In this document: positions 2,889 to 24,076 of the stretch, piece after piece
Position numbering within the stretch: the stretch's first letter is position 1
How the letters are laid out: every line of letters begins with the position of its first letter
Assembly: GCA_000004695.1 (NCBI GenBank)
Contig: CM000153.2
Span: 4,832,001 to 4,896,000 of the forward strand
DNA length: 64,000 nucleotides
Origin: Dictyostelium discoideum
Lineage: Eukaryota
Direction of reading: 5' to 3'
Translations under genes and position numbers: made by a program
The notes under the pieces: generated by a model
What the model was told of the DNA's origin: nothing
Database searches by the model: none
What the model saw: the letters and a program-made list of their open reading frames with translations, nothing else

Positions 2889-3532
2889 GTTCATTGAAAA
2901 AAAATAGATATTGATAATTTAAAATTACCAAGCACTAAATAATCAAAATAAAAAAAAATAAAAAAAAATAGGAATGGTGACAAAATAAATAAATAAAAAT
3001 GCAAAAATAATATTAAATTAAAATTAAAATAAAAAAAAAAAACAAAACAACGAAAAAAAAAAAAAACCATCAAAATTAGTCCACTTCGGTTGGAATTAGA
3101 ATAATTGATTTTTTTTTTTTTTTTTGCATATTATCTAAAAAAAATCTAATGGAAAAAAAAAACTTTTGGAACCTTTTCCCACCTATTTTTTAATCTAACG
3201 CAAATTTTTTGCTTTGTTCCGTGTTTAGGTTGATTTTTTTTTTTTTTTTAGTTAACTTTTTTTTTTTTAATATTATATTGCCACCTTGTGGCCAATTGAT
3301 CTAAAACAATCAAAAAAAAAAAAAAAGGTAGAAAGTAAAAAAATGTTTTTTAAATAAAAAAAAAAAAAAAAAAAAAAATTAAAAAATAAAAAAAAAAAAA
3401 AACAAACCAAAACAAAATAAAACAAAACAAAACAAAACAAAACAAGCAAAAAATCAAATAAATAAATTTTCATTTTAATTATTTTATTTTTATTTTAAAA
3501 AATATAAAATAAAATAAAATAAAATAAAAAAA

Positions 3533-6500
3533 ATGAAAAACCAAATAATATTTTATTTTTTGATTTTATTATTTTCAACATTTTATATTTCATTTTCTAA
3601 TTCCCAAACCTTACAAGAATATAATTGTTTAGCCAATATTTTTGCCAAATTTAATTTATCAAATGCTTACCCAAAAAATGCAACTGGTGGACATACAAAT
3701 ATTTGTTCAAGTCCTGGTATTACATGTTCTAGTGGCACTGTTTTGTAAGTTTTATAAAACAAATTTTAAATTATTAATAAAATTGATATTAACAAATTTT
3801 GAATTATTATTTTTTTATTTTTTTTATTTTTATTTTTTTTTTAAATTATAGGGGAATAGAAATTACAGCTAATTTAGAATATCCACCTCCAAATGCGGTT
3901 CTTACACCAAACGATGTATTTTGTTTACCAAATTTATATTCTCTTAAATTTGAAAAAATGAAAGTCAACACAGATTTTATTTTTACAAAGTTTGGCAATG
4001 CAAAGTCATTCACTTTGTACCAAGTGCCTAGAGGTGGAATTGATATTAATATAATTGATAGACCTTTCCCTTCATACGATAACTAGTAATTATTATTATT
4101 AAAAAAAAAAAAACAAAAAAAAAAAACAAAACAATTTTATAGCAAAACTAATATTTTTATTATAAAAAAAAAAAAAAAAAAATTTACAGTTTCATAGCAA
4201 TTGAAGAATTTAATAATACAATTTTATATTCTTCATATTTAAATAATATTAAAAATTTTTATTTTCAATTATCTTTTGTTAGATTTATTATTAACGAAGG
4301 AACCAATTTTACAAATCTTAGTTTACTTTCTTTATGGTCTCTAAATATCCCAGATTTATCATCATACAAATCACTCAATTCAGTAGTTTTAACTTTAAGA
4401 GGAGATTATGATACATCATCAGTAAGCAATTATGCTAACATTAAATCATCAAAAATCCAAATTACATCCCTAGGAGGTCCAGCAGTCCCAAGTATTATTG
4501 AAACTAATCGTATGGTAAGTTCTGTTTCAATTTACTCCCTAAAATTTACTAAACCATCTGGTATAATTGATATGTCAACAGGTTATAATCTAAGAGATCT
4601 TATATTGAATGGTGTTGGTACAGATTTTAATGTGAATGGAGAATTTCCAATTATGTTTTCAAGTACTGTTCTTTCTGTAACAGTTAATGGTGGTCCATGG
4701 AAAACTGTCCCAGCCTTTGCTAATGTTTCAAATGGAGCAATCGCAGTTAGATCTTCAGGTTTAACAGATTTACCAGTTTTTTATACTGGAAATGCAACCA
4801 TTTTAGATTTTTCTAGTAACGCTTTGACAGGCACAATAGATAGATCTTATTGTGACTCTGAATTGATTGTTTCAAATAATAAATTAACAGGAACCATCCC
4901 AACATGTTACACTTGTTATTTTGGGTTTCCAATTACTACATCATACGGATCATGGTCAAAAACAGCATTTTACAATAGATTTAGTGGTAACACATTCACA
5001 AACTATGTATCAAATCCAGGTTGTACAACATTTGCTCCTCAAGTGAGAGCAAATGATAATTTATCAGGTTTCATTATTTCTGGTAATGATATTGGGTGGG
5101 AAGGTACACCTTATAAAATTAATGGTAGTTATTCATGTCCAAACGCTCTTGGTAGAGAAAAAAGAGCGTTTAATTGTGTTATAGCAAACAATATCATAAG
5201 AGGTGTTAGATATGCCAGTATTTTAAACACATGGCATAATACAAATTATACTTTCTCAATTATTAGTAGTCCACCAGATGCAACCTCAGTTTCAATTTCA
5301 ACCAATACTCTTACCATCGATGGTACTTACTTTTCATCTTATCTTGGTCAATCAATTCAAACTGTTAAAGTTGCCACTGTTGGTTGTACCATTAGTTCAA
5401 CCGATTTCTTTAAAATCGTTTGTACCACTGCTTCTTCGATTCCATCTTCTGCCTCGGCTAGTCAATTACTCACAATCGCAACCGCAAATGAAACTAAAAA
5501 ATTCTATATTCAAACTTCAAATGGCTACAAAAATACAAAAGTTTGTCCAAACGATTGTTCCACTAATTCAAGAGGTATTTGTGATTTAAGTACTGGTGCT
5601 TGTGTTTGTAACCAAGGTTTTAGGGGTAGTGATTGTAGTGAAATTCCATGTCCAACCTTTAATTCATTAGAATGTAATGGTAGTCCAAACGTTTGTAATA
5701 CTACAACTGGTGTTTGTCAATGCTCTGGAAGAAACTTTGGTTCTGCCTGTGGTTCTATCCAATGTGTTGTTCCAAGTTGCTCAAATTTCGGTACCTGTGA
5801 CACAACAATTGGTGTTTGTAAATGTGATTCATCTCATCAAGGTGGCGATTGTTCATTACCATTAATCCAATGTCCAACTTTTAATTCACTAGCATGTAAT
5901 GGTGGTTTAAATCAATGTAATAATCAAACTGGTATTTGCTCATGTGATTCATCTCATCAAGGTAAAGATTGTTCATTACCACTAATCCAATGTCCAACTT
6001 TTAATTCATTATCATGTAATGGTGGTTCTAACCAATGTAATAATCAAACTGGTATTTGCTCATGTGATTCATCTCATCAAGGTATTGATTGTTCATTACC
6101 ATTAATCAAATGTCCAACTTTTAATTCATTATCATGTAATGGTGGCTCAAATCAATGTAATAATCAAACTGGTACTTGCTCATGTGATTCATCTCATCAA
6201 GGTATTGATTGTTCATTACCATTAATCCAATGTCCAACTTTTAATTCATTAGCATGTAATGGTGGTTTAAATCAATGTAATAATCAAACTGGTACTTGTT
6301 CATGTGATTCATCTCATCAAGGTAAAGATTGTTCATTACCATTAATCCAATGTCCAACTTTTAATTCATTAGCATGTAATGGTGGTTCAAACTCTTGTAA
6401 TAATCAAACTGGTACTTGCTCATGTGATTCATCTCATCAAGGTATTGATTGTTCATTACCATTAATCCAATGTCCAGCTGTCAATTCTTTACCATGCAAT

Positions 6501-8527
6501 GGTGGTTCAAACTCTTGTAATAATCAAACTGGTACTTGCTCATGTGATTCATCCCTTCAAGGTGGTGATTGTTCATTACCATTAATCCAATGTCCAACTT
6601 TTAATTCATTATCATGTAATGGTGGTTCAAATCAATGTAATAATCAAACTGGTATTTGCTCATGTGACTCATCCCATCAAGGTAGCGATTGTTCATTACC
6701 ATTAATCGAATGTCCAAATGTTAATTCTTTACCATGTAATGGTGGTTCAAACTCTTGTAATAATCAAACTGGTAGTTGCTCTTGTGATTCATCTCACCAA
6801 GGTATTGATTGTTCATTACCATTAATCCAATGTCCAACTTTTAATTCATTACCATGTAATGGTGGTTCAAACTCTTGTGATGATCAAACTGGTACTTGTT
6901 CATGTGATTCATCCCATCAAGGTAACGATTGTTCATTACCATTAATCCAATGTCCAACTGTCAATTCATTATCATGTAATGGTGGTTCCAATCAATGTAA
7001 TAATCAAACTGGTACTTGCTCATGTGATTCATCCCATCAAGGTGGTGATTGTTCATTACCATTAATTGAATGTTTAAATGATTGCAGTGGAAATGGTATT
7101 TGTGATACATACAAAGGAAAATGTCAATGCACTCCAGGTAAATTTATTGGTGAAGATTGTTCAATCATTTATCATTATGTTACATCAGTTAAACCATCAA
7201 CAACCAAAGGTGGATTAGCTTCATTTTATGGTGTTTTTGGTAATGTTCATGATTCATTAACTATTAAAATTGGTGGATTGGATTGTAAAATTGAAATTGA
7301 CCAAGTTTCAGATAATCAAATCGATTGTATTGCACCAGCTGGAACAGGTATTAAATCAATCAATGTAACACAAAATGGAGTAACTTATTTCAAAAATAAC
7401 TATTACCAATATCAATCAATTGAAACAGTTTTACAATGTCCAAAAGATTGTTCAGGAGCAAACAATGGTATTTGTAATACTACAACAGGTCAATGTACAT
7501 GTATTAATGGTTATGGTTCACACGATTGTAGCGAACTTTCAAATAACAACAATAATAATAGTAACGGAGGTGGTAGTGATAGTGATTCAGAACTTCCACC
7601 AACAGTTATCGTTGTTGATCCAGGAAAGACAAATATTACAAATGGAGAAACCAACTTTTTAATTTACATTAAATCAATTTCAGAAATTGATTATGAAGGA
7701 AATATTTTAAAAACTTTCCCACTTAATAATGTTTGGGAAAAAGTTAATTCAACAGATTCAAATACCTATATTTACAAACAAAAATTGGAAAACACAAATT
7801 GTATTGTTGAATCAAAGATTGAAGAAATTACAAATAAAGATGGAAAATTATTTTCATTCGCAGATGTTGATTTTAAAGTTGAAAGTGGTTCAGTTAAATT
7901 CTCAATTTCAGTTAGTAATTATACATATATTAGTAATTTAAATAATCTTCAAATTGAATTAATTTCGGAAACATCACAATTAGCTCAAGATGATAATAAT
8001 TGTAATGAAGTTGATACATCATTAGATACATCAAATTTTAATAGTGAATCAAATTTGAACTATATTAAAATTTCAAAGAATAATAAAGTACTCTCTGGTA
8101 GATTCATTAATAAAGTAGTTTCAGATGGTAAAGTTACTTTCCTCGACTCAATAGCAACAAAATCAACATCAGATTCAATTTCAATTACATTAAATTTACC
8201 ACATTGTACATCTCAATGTTTAGTTGATCCAGGTATGTTTTTTTTTTTTTTTTTTAAATTTCTAAACTAAAACCAAAGTAAAATACTAATTTTTTTATTT
8301 TTATTTTTTATTTTTATTAAAAAATAGATTTTTCTGTTTTACTTTCATCAGATTTCAAATCAAAATGTGGTGAAAAAGATGATAAGAAATCATATGTTAT
8401 TCCAGTAGCAGTTGTCTCATCAGTTGTTGGTGTAGCTTCAATTGGTGCTGCTAGTTTTATTATTTACAAAAAGAAATACATTGAAAATCCATTAAAAAAG
8501 AAATTAAGCAGAGCTTCACAAAATTAA
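3533..8527 (+). CDS. Type-I cell-surface protein of ~1562 aa. Modules: signal peptide, plant-type LRR-like N-terminal region ('LTGTID/LTGTIP'), 11 tandem 40-aa EGF-like Cys repeats, an IPT/TIG domain, further EGF-like modules, a C-terminal transmembrane helix and a short cytoplasmic tail. Exons 3533..3744, 3852..4085, 4190..8232, 8328..8527.
   Basis: Exon 1 encodes 'MKNQIIFYFLILLFSTFYISFSNSQ' (signal peptide) and ends at GTAAGT (3745). Exon 2 follows 'tatag' (3851) and ends at GTAATT (4086). Exon 3 follows 'tttacag' (4189) and contains the long ORF with repeated 'CDSSHQGxDCSLPLIQCPTFNSLxCNGGxNQCNNQTGxCS' and the TIG-like segment 'IKIGGLDCKIEIDQVSDNQIDCIAPAGTGIKSINVTQNG'. It ends at GTATGT (8233). 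Exon 4 (after 'aaaatag', 8327) encodes 'VIPVAVVSSVVGVASIGAASFIIYKKKYIENPLKKKLSRASQN*'. Total 4689 nt = 1563 codons, frame-consistent. Confidence 0.7.
5823..7075 (+). repeat. Coding minisatellite: ~10.5 tandem copies of a 120-bp unit (one 40-aa EGF-like module each) with very high nucleotide identity
   Basis: 'tgtgattcatctcatcaagg' recurs at 5823, 5943, 6063, 6183, 6303, 6423, 6543, 6663, 6783, 6903 and 7023, an exact 120-bp period. Units differ by only a few substitutions (e.g. K/I/G/S/N at one residue). Confidence 0.9.
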
Positions 8528-8733
8528 AACCTTAATAATAATAATAATAATAATAATAATATATAAACAAATAAAAAATTTATAAAATTATTTAATAATT
8601 TTATAAAAAAAATTATTCACTAACAACAAATTTATTTTAATATATTAATAATAATAATAATAATATTTTAATAAATTTTAAAAATTGTATTTTTAAAAAA
8701 AAAAATAATAAAATATATTTATATATTTATTTA

Positions 8734-9264: not shown

Positions 9265-11802
9265 AATTTAATTTAAAGATTCTTCAACAAAATCATCATT
9301 TTGTGGTGATTGTGTTGAAGTTTGAACTGGTGAATCAATTTGTTGTGGTTGTTGTGATGAATCTTGTTGTTGTTGTTGTTGTTCTTCATTCTTTGGTTGT
9401 TGTTGTTGTTGTTGTTGTTGTTGTAAATTTATAGATTGTGGTGGTTGTTGTTGTTGTGGTGGTTTAGTTGAAGTTATTGATTTTGGAGAATTCATAGTAT
9501 TTGAAATTGCAGCTTCATTTCTTTTTCTAGTAACAGCTTTATTAATAGCATCTTTCATTTTTCTTAAATTATTATTAATAATTTGAGATTGAATATCAGA
9601 AGCCAATTGAGTAACTCTTTGTTGAACTGTTGTAGTGGTATCGACTAAACGAAGACGTTCTTTTATCATTTGCATTGATGGTGAATTCTCTGGTTGTTTT
9701 AAGAAATCAGCAATATCTAAAACCAACATTGGCATATGTTGAATTGATTGATTACGTTTGAAACCAATTGAGAAATATTCTAAACCTACTGTAGTTGTTA
9801 AATTTTCATCCCAATATAAAGTTTTAATAGTTTTATTTACTTGAATTACACGACCTAAAGTAATGGCTAAATCATCACCAGCATGATGACCAGAGATATC
9901 GATTTCAGTGATTGTATCATTTTTTAAGAGAGCATGAGCCAATGGTATAATGTCACCCTTTACACGACCATTATTTTGACCAGCAAAATGTAAAGTTTCC
10001 AATGGACATAAACTAAAAGATGATGGTGAAATTAATTTAACCAATGATTTAACTGCATTACCTAATGAACCACTACCAACACCACCACCACTACCACCAC
10101 TACCACCACTTGAATCACCTGTAAGTTTTGAAGTTACTTTTGAAATTGATAATTTATTCATAATATCGGTATTGATAGTGAAATTACGATTTATATAAAG
10201 ATGTTTTAATTTTGGTAGGGTAGTATGACAGAGTATATCTACCAATGTAACAATACCCTCTTCCTCTAATTCATTATCAGAAAGATTCAAACGAATTAAG
10301 TTGATAACTGATGAAAGAATTGTATAGATTGAATTTGGTGATGGACAAGTTGATGATAAATCTATATCTGCAAGATTTGGACAAATCATTGAAAGGAACA
10401 ATGAAAGATCATTAGCATTTTGTTCGAGTTGTTGTTTATTTGATGCATTGAAATTCAATTTATTAGCAGATAAATCAAGTTTTGAAATGATTCTAGTCTC
10501 TTTTGATTTTTGAATGGTTGGTGGTGGTTTAATAGCTGACCAAGTTGGTTGACAATTAGACATTTCAAATTGACGCAATGCAGTTGCCTCTGATAAAAAC
10601 AATACCATATCAGAGGCAGCATCCTCCATACGATTACCAGAGACTGAAAGGAATTTCAAGTTCTTTGAAATCCATTTATTTTGTCTAAAAGCTCTGAAAA
10701 GGTTGGAAAGACCTTGCTTACCGATATTACATTTCGATAGATTGATGGAATGAATCTCATGAGAGATCGTAGATAACCAATCGTTACAAAGGAATTGCAC
10801 ACCACGATCTTCGATTGAATTATTTGATAAATCAACTTGAGTTAAATAGTTATTGAATGCCAATGACATCCAAGTCTCTGGTGTTATCCAAGATTCTCTT
10901 GCATTGATATTAGAAAGTTGTAATCTCGATATCTTTCTATTGGTTTCCAATACCCTATTGACTGAATGCACGCCATCATTACCAATCTTACATTGAGTCG
11001 ATGGTGTTGAGTTTGCCACAGTCACCGATTCAAACCATTGATTATACTTTAATGCATCAATCATTGCTCTACCTTGTTGAGGTGTTGGTGATTCTGGCCA
11101 ATCACTTAAATTTAAATCTTTAATATTATTAGACTCAAATAAATTATCAACTTCCCAACAAATATCCTCTCTAACTTGAATACCATAAAAATCTGAACAA
11201 CAACGATATGTTCTTGAAAATCCACCACATGCTCCAATATTTAAATTATTATTATTATTTGATGTTGTTGTTGTTGTCGTATTACCATTTTTACTCTCTT
11301 GCATACCAGGGAAATTTAATGAAAACATTTTCTTTATTGCAATTGATAATTCTTGAACTTTTTCAGAATTATTAAAGTTAATTGTAATTTGATTAAATTT
11401 TAAGGTTGCCTCTTGTTCTGAACTACCTTCAGTTGTTATTTGATAATCTAATAAATCTAATATATGTGCATCGAATAATGGTTTACTACTTGATGATGTT
11501 GAAAATACATGAAATCTAAATGATGAAACTATTAATATCTTTTGTTCTTCTTGTTGTTGTTTTGATGATGAAAAGAAATTCTTTTTTTTTAATTCTGTAT
11601 ATATTCCACTAAAATAAATTTGTTTTCCTCTTAAATATTGTTCAATATTTTCTTTTTAATTTTTTAATTTTTTTTTTTTTTTTATTATTTAATTAGTATT
11701 AAAATGAAGTTCAATTTTTGTTATTATTTTTATATTTTATATACTTTTTTCACTTGGACCAAAACTGGAGTCTGTTGGAAATATTAAACGATTTTCATCC
11801 AT
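9265..11802 (-). CDS. CARMIL homologue (capping protein / Arp2/3 / myosin-I linker family), ~814 aa. Architecture: N-terminal PH-like region, leucine-rich repeats, Q-rich C-terminus. Exons 11802..11745 and 11651..9265.
   Basis: 'GACGGFSRTYRCCSDFYGIQVREDICWEVDNLFESNNIKDLNLSDW…AMIDALKYNQWFESV' aligns with human CARMIL1 '[46 protein letters not shown]…IIAALEYNQWFTKL'. The upstream in-frame extension gives 'EEQKILIVSSFRFHVF…SIAIKKMFSLNFPGM', matching CARMIL 'ENKVLVLTSCRAFLV…CLRKIFPGL'. The first exon 'MDENRLIFPTDSSFGPSEK' ends at GTATAT. The acceptor is 'ttaaaaag'. LRR consensus 'LDLSxNxL' is repeated. Confidence 0.75.
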
Positions 11803-21621: not shown

Positions 21622-22902
21622 TTATAAATGAACTAAATATGGTGGTTTATAAACTTTTTTCTTTGAAAATACATTTTGAAGTGGTAGACCATTTTTAAAA
21701 GGTAAAATAGAACTATTAATATTACTACCATAGATTGAATTTGATGATTCAGCTTTGACAGCATCAAAACACATTAAACAAATTCTAACCTTATTGTTCA
21801 CACCAAAACCATATAAACAAACCTTTTGATTTGAACAAGCTTCACAAAACACACCACCACAAGCTCTACAATGATGAGTTCTCCTTATGATTGTAAATGT
21901 ATTATCACAAAGATTACAATTTGTAATTGATGATTCATCTTTCCATTTTGGTAACCATAATACTTTCCATTCTTTTGGTGGATTTAATTTAAATCTATCA
22001 TTATCTTCGTCGTCTTCATCATCATAAAATTCATCATCATAATTTTGTTGTTGTTGTTCATCTAAATTCTCTTCTTGTTCATTTAAATAATTACTACTAC
22101 TATGATTACTATTGCTATTACTACTACCACTACCACTACCACTACCACTACTACTATAACTATTTCTAATATTACCAAAACTATTACTTGTATGAAATGG
22201 TAAAGAATGAATATTATTACTAATTGTTGTGAAATTATTATCATCAAAACGTTGCCATAAATGAACTGGTATTTTTAATTTAAAATTTGAGATTGAAGGA
22301 ATAGAAATGATGAAAAAATGTTTAACAGTTGATAAAAAACCTCTAGTAGTTGGAAAAACTTGGTCATCTTCAATTTTAAATGGTATTAATATTTGTAAAT
22401 TAGTTGAACATAATATCTCTTGTGATGATGATGATGATGTTGTTGTTTGATTTTTAAATAATTCTCTACAATCATAATTATGTAATAGTATTTGAGTTTG
22501 TGATACTTTAGTTTTATCAATATTATGATCACTACTATTATTTCTATAATGATATCTATGACTACCACTACTCTTTTTATTTGATTTTTGAATATTTGAA
22601 ATACGATCATTACCAATACCGCCACCATTATTATTTTTATTACTACTACCACCACTACTACTACTATTACTATTTGATAATGTTTTTATAAATGAAATTT
22701 GTTGAAATAATTCAACACGAATTGAATTAATCTTTAAATTTAATGGATTCTTTAATTGTATGAAAAATGTTGCTTTTGATCCAATATAACAATTATTCTC
22801 TCTTAAACAAATTGCCATTTCAATTGGATTTGATTTATAATTATTACTAATACCAATATTATTATTATTATTAATATTATTATTAGTTATTGTAGAGGGT
22901 TG

Positions 22903-22997
<95 letters not shown>

Positions 22998-24076
22998 TAT
23001 TACTATTTGTATTAGTACCAAATGATAACCAATTTAAATAATGAGCAAGTTTATGAGAAGTGAAATGAGTTTTATTATATAATAGATAATCTTGATATTG
23101 TTTATTAATACCTGATATCCATAATTCAGAACTTTTCATAACTTTTTGATCTTTCCATTCTCTACCTTTTGAATAATCAACTTTACAATGCACTAAATAA
23201 AATATTGATAAATAACCAATATAATTCAATGATGGTGCTAAATATTTTGGTAATTGAAATGAAAATGGGTATTCATAAACACCACTTTCAAATTCATGTA
23301 TTGGTGTTGTTAATTGTTGTGAAAATGATGATGATAATGATGATACTGATGACATCATTCCTGTTGTTGTCGTTGTTGTTGTTGATGATTTTGAATTTAA
23401 ATTTGACGATAATAAAGTTGGTGATAAAGTTGAATTTTGTGTAGAAGTTGTTGTTGGTAATAATATTGGACTATTATTCTCTGAATTTGAAATTGGTAAT
23501 GAATTTAATGATGTAGTCTCAATATTTACATTCAATGGAGGTATATTTAAATTACCACTATAAAATTTAAATGTTTGATAGGTATTATTTGAATGTTGTG
23601 CATGTTGAAATATCTTTTCATATCCACATAATTGTAATTTCACCCTCTTTATACATTGTCTCTCTGTTAATAATATATTCACCTTACCACTTATTGTTTC
23701 TCCATTTGTAAAATATGATTTATCTAAATTAATCTTTAAATTACATCTATATATATATATATATAAAATATAAAGTAGAGTAATTAGTATTATAATAATA
23801 AATAATAAATAATAATAATAGTTTTTATATATATTTATATTACATTTGACCTTTTTCTGAAAGCTCCAATGGATATTTTGAAGAAGATGAAGGTGGTGGG
23901 GGTGGAATACTTGTTGAATTTAATGTTGGTGATAATTTCTTTTGTGGTGAAATAGAGTTAAATAATGAAGACGGCTGATTACTCTCATTTTGATTACTAT
24001 TAATTAAAACATGTTGTTGTGATATTTGTATTGGTAGTGAATTATTATTATGATGATTATTTAACAAAGTCGTCAT
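21622..24076 (-). CDS. Arrestin-domain-containing protein with a C-terminal FYVE zinc finger (AdcA-like), ~785 aa. Exons 24076..23844 and 23746..21622.
   Basis: The arrestin-N signature 'KINLDKSYFTNGETISGKVNILLTERQCIKRVKLQLCGYE' runs across the listed GTG 'start'. FYVE motif: 'WLPKWKDESSITNCNLCDNTFTIIRRTHHCRACGGVFCEACS…RICLMCF'. Upstream exon 'MTTLLNNHHNNN…KYPLELSEKGQ' ends at GTAATA. Acceptor 'tatatatag'. Long internal (AAT)n encodes poly-N. Sum 2358 nt, in frame. Confidence 0.7.

Follow-up and report, generated by a model that had tools for sequence, protein, structure and literature searches.

In-frame 120-bp repeats encoding EGF-like domains differ in number between orthologues of the predicted Dictyostelium surface-protein gene DDB_G0286677

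The gene DDB_G0286677 (plus strand, 3533-8527) lies in a 64,000-nucleotide stretch of the Dictyostelium discoideum AX4 genome (GenBank assembly GCA_000004695.1, contig CM000153.2, positions 4,832,001 to 4,896,000 of the forward strand), which was analysed as a whole and is called the window throughout; all coordinates refer to it. The gene carries a tandem array of in-frame 120-bp repeats, and syntenic orthologues differ in this array by whole units. We consider it likely that the array is a coding minisatellite whose unit is one EGF-like domain and which makes up most of the stalk of the product, with turnover of units by exchange or slippage plus short-tract conversion changing the length of that stalk. 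An earlier reading of the same DNA, made without database searches (called the sequence-only reading here), had correctly placed the repeats in an EGF/TIG surface-protein gene, which can now be named more precisely as the ComC-family member DDB_G0286677.

Tandem Repeats Finder returned a single array at 5822-7073 with a period of 120, 10.4 copies, 90% matches, 0% indels and a score of 1979, and this was the only long-period array in the window. The position, the 120-bp period and the copy number of about 10.5 proposed by the sequence-only reading were thus right, except that its eleven modules are ten full 120-bp units (plus strand, 5823-7022) and one partial unit of 51 bp or 17 codons (plus strand, 7023-7073). 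The full units, whose starts lie at 5823+120k, are all in frame 0 of the gene, and the motif TG[TC]GA[TC]TCATC recurs at 5823, 5943 and onwards to 7023, each time in frame 0 of the long open reading frame (ORF). This ORF is bounded by GT...AG introns at both ends, and the whole array lies within one exon. In the register of the repeat finder the unit protein reads CDSSHQGxDCSLPLIQCPTFNSLxCNGGSNQCNNQTGxCS. In the register of the domain, which starts at 5871+120k, each unit comprises one EGF-like domain, from CPTFNSL to SLPLIQ, and a five-residue linker, with the cysteine spacing C-x7-C-x6-C-x6-C-x-C-x8-C including a C-x-C between Cys4 and Cys5; the partial eleventh unit ends the tenth in-register domain and runs into the following module D. 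Four units scanned against Pfam matched EGF_2 (9.4e-16, 58.3 bits, cut-off 22.1), and the whole protein matched EGF_TEN (92.1 bits, cut-off 65). The array totals 63 cysteines and 9 sequons, nine of the ten units having one N-Q-T N-glycosylation sequon. The DNA repeat is offset from the domain: it starts at Cys5 of the unique module C and stops after Cys1 of the unique module D, and this lack of register fits DNA-level duplication as opposed to exon or domain shuffling. An alternative-frame or antisense gene across the array was considered and rejected, there being no ORF of at least 50 aa outside the gene's own frame. A PDB sequence search with four units gave no match at E <= 0.01.

The units are similar but clearly not copies of one another. 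Pairwise identity among the ten full units averaged 91.0% in DNA (85.8-95.8%) and 87.8% in protein (80-95%), 29 of the 120 columns were variable, and all ten units were distinct both in DNA and in protein. Mean divergence within the AX4 array (Nei-Gojobori) was 0.20 at synonymous sites (dS) and 0.07 at nonsynonymous sites (dN); array dN/dS was 0.34-0.47. The sequence-only reading had described units identical in protein, almost base-for-base in DNA and with very few synonymous differences, which these values contradict. The amino-acid variation was concentrated at unit positions 8, 16, 19-20, 24, 29, 31 and 38. Exact in-register tracts shared between units reached 61-81 bp (median 33 bp), which provides ample substrate for misaligned pairing.

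A protein search found relatives of the gene in recent NCBI assemblies that cover the D. discoideum complex, D. citrinum and D. dimigraforme, a cluster listing contributed further strains, and the DNA of eight loci was compared. A downstream minus-strand leucine-rich repeat (LRR) gene was common to all eight, and the loci were therefore treated as syntenic orthologues. An upstream minus-strand gene of about 1460-1480 aa was present at seven of the eight loci (where Pfam hits are recorded, they identify it as an ABC transporter); as exceptions, the assembly FIZ has a second ComC-family gene upstream and D. dimigraforme has no called upstream gene. Ten full 40-aa units were found in D. discoideum AX4 and FIT, fifteen in FIR and FIW, both labelled D. 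discoideum, as well as in D. cf. discoideum FIY, and four in D. cf. discoideum FIZ. The assemblies with arrays of 4, 10 or 15 units include GCA_054859385.1, GCA_054859355.1, GCA_054859205.1 and GCA_054859235.1. In D. citrinum FIU, a 34-aa EGF module interrupts the array, which has eight full units plus a 38-aa first unit; D. citrinum FIV has ten full units with the same interruptions, and D. dimigraforme has twelve in an interrupted array. Lengths always differed by whole units, and all arrays were in frame in ORFs of 1148-1561 codons. The variable module number proposed by the sequence-only reading was thus borne out as whole-unit differences, from 4 to 15 among syntenic orthologues, in a contrast that runs between lineages. 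FIT (GCA_054883475.1) is a chromosome-level assembly of the AX4 strain lineage that is 99.8% identical to the reference over 11 kb; it differs by 1 mismatch and 20 gapped bases, in intergenic AT-rich sequence upstream of the gene, and its ten-unit array is identical base for base. No paper on the new Dictyostelium assemblies was found in the literature searched.

A neighbour-joining tree was built from all 89 units. It placed all units of the D. discoideum complex in a single clade; sister to this clade was the last unit of D. citrinum, which lies past the interrupting module. Separate clades were formed by the main block of D. citrinum and by units 1-6 of D. dimigraforme. Mean unit identity was about 91% within the D. 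discoideum complex compared with 74% to D. citrinum units. Units that cluster by species and not by position are the between-species signature of concerted evolution or of birth and death. Within the D. discoideum complex, by contrast, positional unit orthologues were still recognisable, and units were not more alike within a genome than their positional counterparts. A collinear alignment paired AX4 units 1-10 with FIR units 1, 3, 4, 6, 10, 11, 12, 13, 14 and 15 at 92-98% identity, which implies that several in-register indels separate the two arrays.

Recent multi-unit duplications are visible in two of the arrays. In FIY, identity was 94.2% at lag 3 but 90.8% at lag 1, units 2/5/8 and 3/6/9 being 95-98% identical; in D. 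citrinum FIV, units 3 and 6 were 98% and units 4 and 7 were 97% identical. The close relatives FIR and FIW (flank dS 0.014-0.026), both with 15 units of which 11 are 98-100% identical, allowed finer changes to be followed. Their arrays differed at 34 of 1800 sites, and these differences were clustered (variance/mean 3.0), with units 2, 8, 11 and 12 holding 25 of them. In 25 of the 34 cases the states involved already occurred in sister units at the corresponding column, one example being codon 8, exchanged as a 3-nt block. These patches are suggestive of short-tract conversion between units.

The 34-aa EGF module CNGQ..GEDCSG..C..PTCSG.G.C....G.C that interrupts the arrays of D. citrinum and D. 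dimigraforme is followed there by one or two further units, and the D. discoideum complex lacks this interruption. Since all units of the complex are sister to the D. citrinum unit beyond it, the proximal block may have been lost in the complex and the array regrown from the distal unit. Two duplications of the gene were also observed. FIZ carries a tandem duplicate (locus positions 1-2443 and 3001-7279), in which the upstream 1415-aa ComC-family gene matches window positions 6182-8595 at 91.8%, and D. dimigraforme carries two copies (1645 and 1674 aa) with identical EGF arrays on one 283-kb contig; these could be recent segmental duplications or assembly haplotigs. In D. purpureum, DICPUDRAFT_154641 (2134 aa) looks like two adjacent ComC-family genes fused in one gene model, with a ComC_SSD-like end and a transmembrane-like stretch KWKIVVGVIVGVVGVV in mid-protein followed by a second LRR-like region. 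Its CxC motifs recur with a 35-residue period from 1527 to about 1773, suggesting that it has an EGF array of its own, with units of a different length.

To obtain an expectation for the DNA similarity of the units, the protein of each unit was back-translated independently in 2000 simulations, with codon usage taken from the remainder of the gene (1162 non-repeat codons). Mean pairwise DNA identity was 0.910 observed versus 0.781 ± 0.011 simulated (maximum 0.825, z = 12), and the same codon was used at identical residues between units in 90% of cases versus 64% expected. Nucleotide identity above the level given by amino-acid conservation, on which the sequence-only reading had staked its case, was thus found. 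The old module B (5649-5720) also exceeded the null, sharing 84% of codons with the units at identical residues versus 63% expected, so the excess is better taken to mean that synonymous sites are unsaturated than to prove a recent origin. We downgraded the codon-usage null as proof of recency for this reason; it represents saturation and not an ancient array, and timing therefore rests on dS comparisons and on the tree. The codon sharing of module B itself is a hint that the array and this diverged neighbour have occasionally exchanged sequence by conversion, or that codon preference is site-specific.

The adjacent LRR gene served as the yardstick of divergence in place of a distant housekeeping gene; a homologue search with the RMC1-like ORF of the window for calibration of the AX4-FIR distance gave matches from other species only, and exact look-ups of five ORFs of the window returned no match, their gene models having introns or different start codons. 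Between AX4 and FIR/FIW, dS was 0.06-0.08 in the unique parts of DDB_G0286677 and 0.10 in the neighbouring LRR gene; it was 0.10-0.20 between AX4 and the two 'cf.' strains and 0.34-0.52 between AX4 and D. citrinum. Concatenated positional unit orthologues of AX4 and FIR gave a dS of 0.099, and module B compared with the units gave a dS of 0.29 and a dN of 0.29. Because the dS of 0.20 within AX4 is below the D. citrinum values and about twice the AX4-FIR divergence of 0.06-0.10, the present units coalesce after the split of D. discoideum from D. citrinum and on average before the lineage splits inside the complex. By this measure the units are young but not very recent. The proposal of recent expansion or concerted evolution in the sequence-only reading therefore stands as far as turnover and species-specific clades are concerned, whereas its 'very recent' does not.

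Two rival accounts were weighed. One is that an ancient, stable EGF array owes its DNA similarity solely to AT-biased codon usage and to purifying selection on a cysteine-rich fold. It draws on the strong codon bias (expected same-codon rate 0.64, simulated identity 0.78), on module B lying above the null as well (0.84), on the overall purifying selection in the array (dN/dS 0.34-0.47) and on the positional unit orthologues kept between AX4 and FIR/FIW. Yet the observed identity is 12 standard deviations above the codon-usage simulation, the within-array dS of 0.20 is smaller than the orthologue dS of 0.34-0.52 between D. discoideum and D. citrinum, and non-adjacent units are 97-98% identical in FIY and FIV; the unit numbers of 4 to 15 among syntenic orthologues and the grouping of units by species already largely refute this account, and we regard it as highly improbable. 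The other account, a concern also raised by the sequence-only reading, attributes the copy number of the window, or that of other assemblies, to collapse or expansion of a repeat that assemblers cannot resolve; in its favour, arrays of 1.2-1.8 kb made of 91%-identical units are hard for short reads. For the window it is refuted, since the independent assembly GCA_054883475.1 carries the identical ten units despite differences from the reference elsewhere. Moreover, every AX4 unit is distinct (29 variable columns) and can be tiled unambiguously, the separate FIR and FIW assemblies agree on 15 units of which 11 are 98-100% identical, and all arrays are in frame in their ORFs, which leaves an artefact with very little probability.

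A different question is whether the turnover is neutral or whether diversifying or balancing selection acts on unit number and sequence in a recognition system whose specificity is defined by stalk length and head, comparable to polymorphic allorecognition receptors. In the LRR/beta-sandwich head (the part of exon 3 before the EGF modules), the comparison of AX4 with FIR gave a dN of 0.083, a dS of 0.060 and a dN/dS (omega) of 1.39, and omega reached about 3.9 in 60-codon windows of AX4 versus FIR/FIW; it was about 0.15 in the C-terminal half of the gene and 0.03 in the neighbouring LRR gene. This pattern could be due to diversifying selection or to relaxed constraint on the membrane-distal domain. 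A head with dN of at least dS, unlike the C-terminal part and the neighbouring gene, speaks for selection, as do the few unit positions that carry most of the amino-acid variation, the tandem duplication in FIZ and the two copies on one D. dimigraforme contig. However, the omega of 1.39 comes from 81 nonsynonymous and 18 synonymous changes and would look alike under relaxed constraint, and omega within the array is below 0.5. Selection of this kind thus seems unlikely to us as the explanation of the array. The fast-evolving head, the variable stalk and the lineage-specific tandem duplication together make DDB_G0286677 a low-probability candidate for a recognition or adhesion locus. Unlikely, in our view, is the stronger claim that it is an unrecognised polymorphic recognition or adhesion receptor, in which head sequence and stalk length (4-15 domains in steps of about 40 residues) tune partners during aggregation; if true, it would be a second variable social locus alongside tgrB1/tgrC1.

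For the coding minisatellite that we favour, the following course of events can be proposed. Long in-register identical tracts would let misaligned homologous exchange or replication slippage add or remove whole units, some events moving blocks of about three, and short-tract gene conversion would copy patches from unit to unit. As the unit is one domain long and its length divisible by three, each event keeps the frame and a whole number of EGF domains. The array would then turn over by birth and death with partial homogenisation; all units of the D. discoideum complex would trace back to a single unit type younger than the split from D. citrinum, and unit number would since have drifted, or been selected, between 4 and 15. 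As a consequence, the length and the N-glycan load of a stiff, disulphide-rich stalk that holds a fast-evolving LRR/beta-sandwich head off the membrane would change, and alleles with 4 and 15 units would put this head at very different distances from it. The repeat structure, the excess DNA identity, the in-frame copy-number differences, the species-specific clades, the multi-unit duplications and the conversion-like patches are direct observations. The molecular mechanism (exchange or slippage, with conversion), a rod-like stalk geometry and an effect on adhesion or signalling are what we infer from them. Slippage, unequal exchange and conversion are generic mechanisms of minisatellites (review PMC3899988).

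Several points weigh against this reading or parts of it. The unit tree is built from 120-nt units and carries no bootstrap support, and species-specific clades need no conversion, since they can also be produced by independent expansion. Some of the conversion patches could be mimicked by recurrent mutation at hypervariable codons, and the codon sharing of the old module B reduces the force of the excess identity. The contrast of 10 versus 15 units is one between lineages that differ by a dS of about 0.06-0.10 at the locus and not one within a single population, and the array is unchanged between the two assemblies of the AX4 lineage. As to stalk geometry and to an EGF fold with 1-3, 2-4 and 5-6 disulphides, an AlphaFold model of four units was unusable (mean predicted local distance difference test score 41.7, predicted template modelling score 0.20), its alignment consisting of seven unit-shifted copies of the window sequence.

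The gene around the array has four exons (3533-3744, 3852-4085, 4190-8232 and 8328-8527, stop codon included), and its spliced translation of 1562 aa agrees in length and reading with D. discoideum AX4 DDB_G0286677 (XP_637616.1, UniProt Q54LE5). Judged by its sequence, the protein is a member of the ComC family, with all four Pfam-defined domains in family order, and is a paralogue and not comC itself. It reads as a type I membrane protein, in view of the Pfam domains, a hydrophobic N-terminus and, at the C-terminal end, a hydrophobic helix that KKKY follows, and the EGF region would link a membrane-distal head to a membrane-proximal TIG domain and supersandwich. All features described here are on the plus strand. 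The hydrophobic N-terminus is a predicted signal peptide, MKNQIIFYFLILLFSTFYISFSNS (3533-3604), identified by reading the sequence. It is followed by the LRR_ComC head (PF24141, E 1.7e-40, 139.9 bits, cut-off 27), of which the single ORF that was scanned covers profile positions 165-288 (C-terminal part, 4515-4886), the remainder of the domain lying in exons 1-2 where it starts. Two ComC beta-sandwich domains (5022-5534) matched PF24142 (1.4e-18) and PF24143 (4.1e-31), both at full length. Three older, diverged EGF-like modules occupy 5544-5822 (A 5544-5639, B 5649-5753, C from 5763); the last third of module C is the start of the array, and modules A-C are kept in position in all orthologues.

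Directly after the array, the unique EGF module D (7071-7163) precedes an IPT/TIG domain (7236-7412; PF01833, E 1.8e-7, 31.4 bits, cut-off 20.9) and a single EGF-like module E (7437-7532), a six-cysteine CPKDC...HDCS module read from the translation; in the Pfam segment scan, which reached only its first residues, module E scored as EGF_2 with a non-significant E of 0.71. The membrane-proximal ComC_SSD supersandwich (7608-8232) matched PF22933 (9.9e-71) over profile positions 6-218 of 222. The region 8396-8524 holds the putative transmembrane helix (8396-8467; hydrophobic VIPVAVVSSVVGVASIGAASFIIY, then KKKY) and a basic cytoplasmic tail of 19 aa, as deduced from the sequence.

With respect to the gene model, the newer NCBI annotations of FIT and FIW drop 23 residues, LYQVPRGGIDINIIDRPFPSYDNY (window 4010-4085, the end of exon 2), that are kept in the AX4 model, and this omission accounts for the lengths of 1539 versus 1562 and 1738 versus 1761 aa. 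Since FIR, FIY, FIZ and D. citrinum retain this segment as conserved coding sequence, the AX4 splice model looks right. In AX4 the neighbours of DDB_G0286677 are an ABC transporter and an LRR protein, with no adjacent partner gene of the ComC family. A second ComC paralogue or a partner gene was sought among the ORFs of the 64-kb window and none was found; the other large ORFs encode VPS13, RNB nuclease, COG7, RMC1, RGS and FYVE/arrestin proteins. With a G+C content of about 20% outside genes, the window is very AT-rich, and it contains further simple repeats. A (TTA)n repeat of about 57 copies (22835-23007) lies inside the minus-strand FYVE/arrestin-domain ORF (21622-23682) and on the coding strand most likely encodes a long poly-Asn tract, typical of Dictyostelium. 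A (TTG)n repeat of about 39 copies (9340-9457) lies at the 3' end of the minus-strand LRR gene (9268-11328), reads as a CAA repeat on the coding strand and is probably polyglutamine. A (TATTT)n-like repeat of about 65 copies (1699-2025) is intergenic, upstream of DDB_G0286677, and all 20 gapped bases between AX4 and FIT fall in the intergenic segment 1707-3532, where it lies.

That adhesion can change rapidly through surface-protein repeats of variable length is known, but nearly all cases that have been worked out, in fungi and bacteria, concern unstructured Ser/Thr spacers. What varies in DDB_G0286677 is a complete EGF-like domain, in a family tied to cell-cell communication of a social amoeba. 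The case is a clean but ordinary one, of modest weight, such repeats in surface genes being already well known. Its practical value is that alleles of 4, 10 and 15 domains in public assemblies form a ready-made series for testing stalk length against aggregation, sorting and signalling, and that the fast-evolving head flags DDB_G0286677 as a candidate for kin-discrimination studies. Short reads should be expected to mis-map in the array of 1.2-1.8 kb; the copy number of the AX4 reference itself is correct.

Among known systems, DDB_G0286677 resembles its own family, named after communication mutant C, in having all four family domains, a predicted signal peptide and a single transmembrane helix; the comC mutant phenotype points to a role of comC in intercellular communication during development. 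It departs from the other family hits in the D. discoideum complex and D. citrinum, which are 865-1178 aa long with 2-5 CxC EGF signatures, and the homogeneous array of 10-15 units is specific to its orthologue group. No mention of DDB_G0286677 was found in the literature searched, and for comC nothing was found there that links it with lagC or tgrC1 beyond a table entry. TgrB1 and TgrC1, encoded by tgrB1/tgrC1, are the allorecognition receptors of Dictyostelium, a polymorphic receptor-ligand pair on which strain segregation depends, and are single-pass proteins with TIG domains whose ectodomain is highly variable between strains. DDB_G0286677 is likewise a predicted single-pass surface protein with a TIG domain and has a head with dN of at least dS. 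Unlike it, the tgr proteins have multiple IPT/TIG domains and lack the LRR_ComC head, the EGF array and ComC_SSD, and no ligand-receptor gene pair is evident beside DDB_G0286677. PMC4931340 lists the tgr genes under the IPT/TIG family and includes comC, secreted and transmembrane, as a gene 'with EGF domains' that is essential for development.

In the fungal adhesins FLO1/FLO11 of S. cerevisiae and ALS of C. albicans, in-frame stalk units of about 100 nt vary in number by slippage, unequal crossing-over and conversion, and in FLO1 adhesion strength scales with repeat length (PMC3899988). In-frame units of a surface-protein stalk that vary in number between strains are found in DDB_G0286677 too. 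The fungal units, however, are Ser/Thr-rich, O-glycosylated and largely unstructured and belong to GPI or cell-wall proteins, whereas the unit of DDB_G0286677 is a six-cysteine EGF-like domain with an N-glycan sequon in a predicted type I membrane protein. Variable number tandem repeats of domain size are known from animals, in kringle IV-2 of human LPA and in the EGF/DPY modules of Drosophila dumpy, where each unit is a whole disulphide-bonded domain, the units are highly similar in DNA and their number varies between individuals via unequal exchange. A kringle unit of LPA is spread over two exons separated by an intron, and the units are almost 100% identical; the array of DDB_G0286677 differs in lying in one exon with units about 91% identical, and organism and protein family are unrelated. 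By analogy of structure, domain-sized repeats such as LPA kringle IV-2 nonetheless appear to be closer counterparts of the array than the fungal adhesins.

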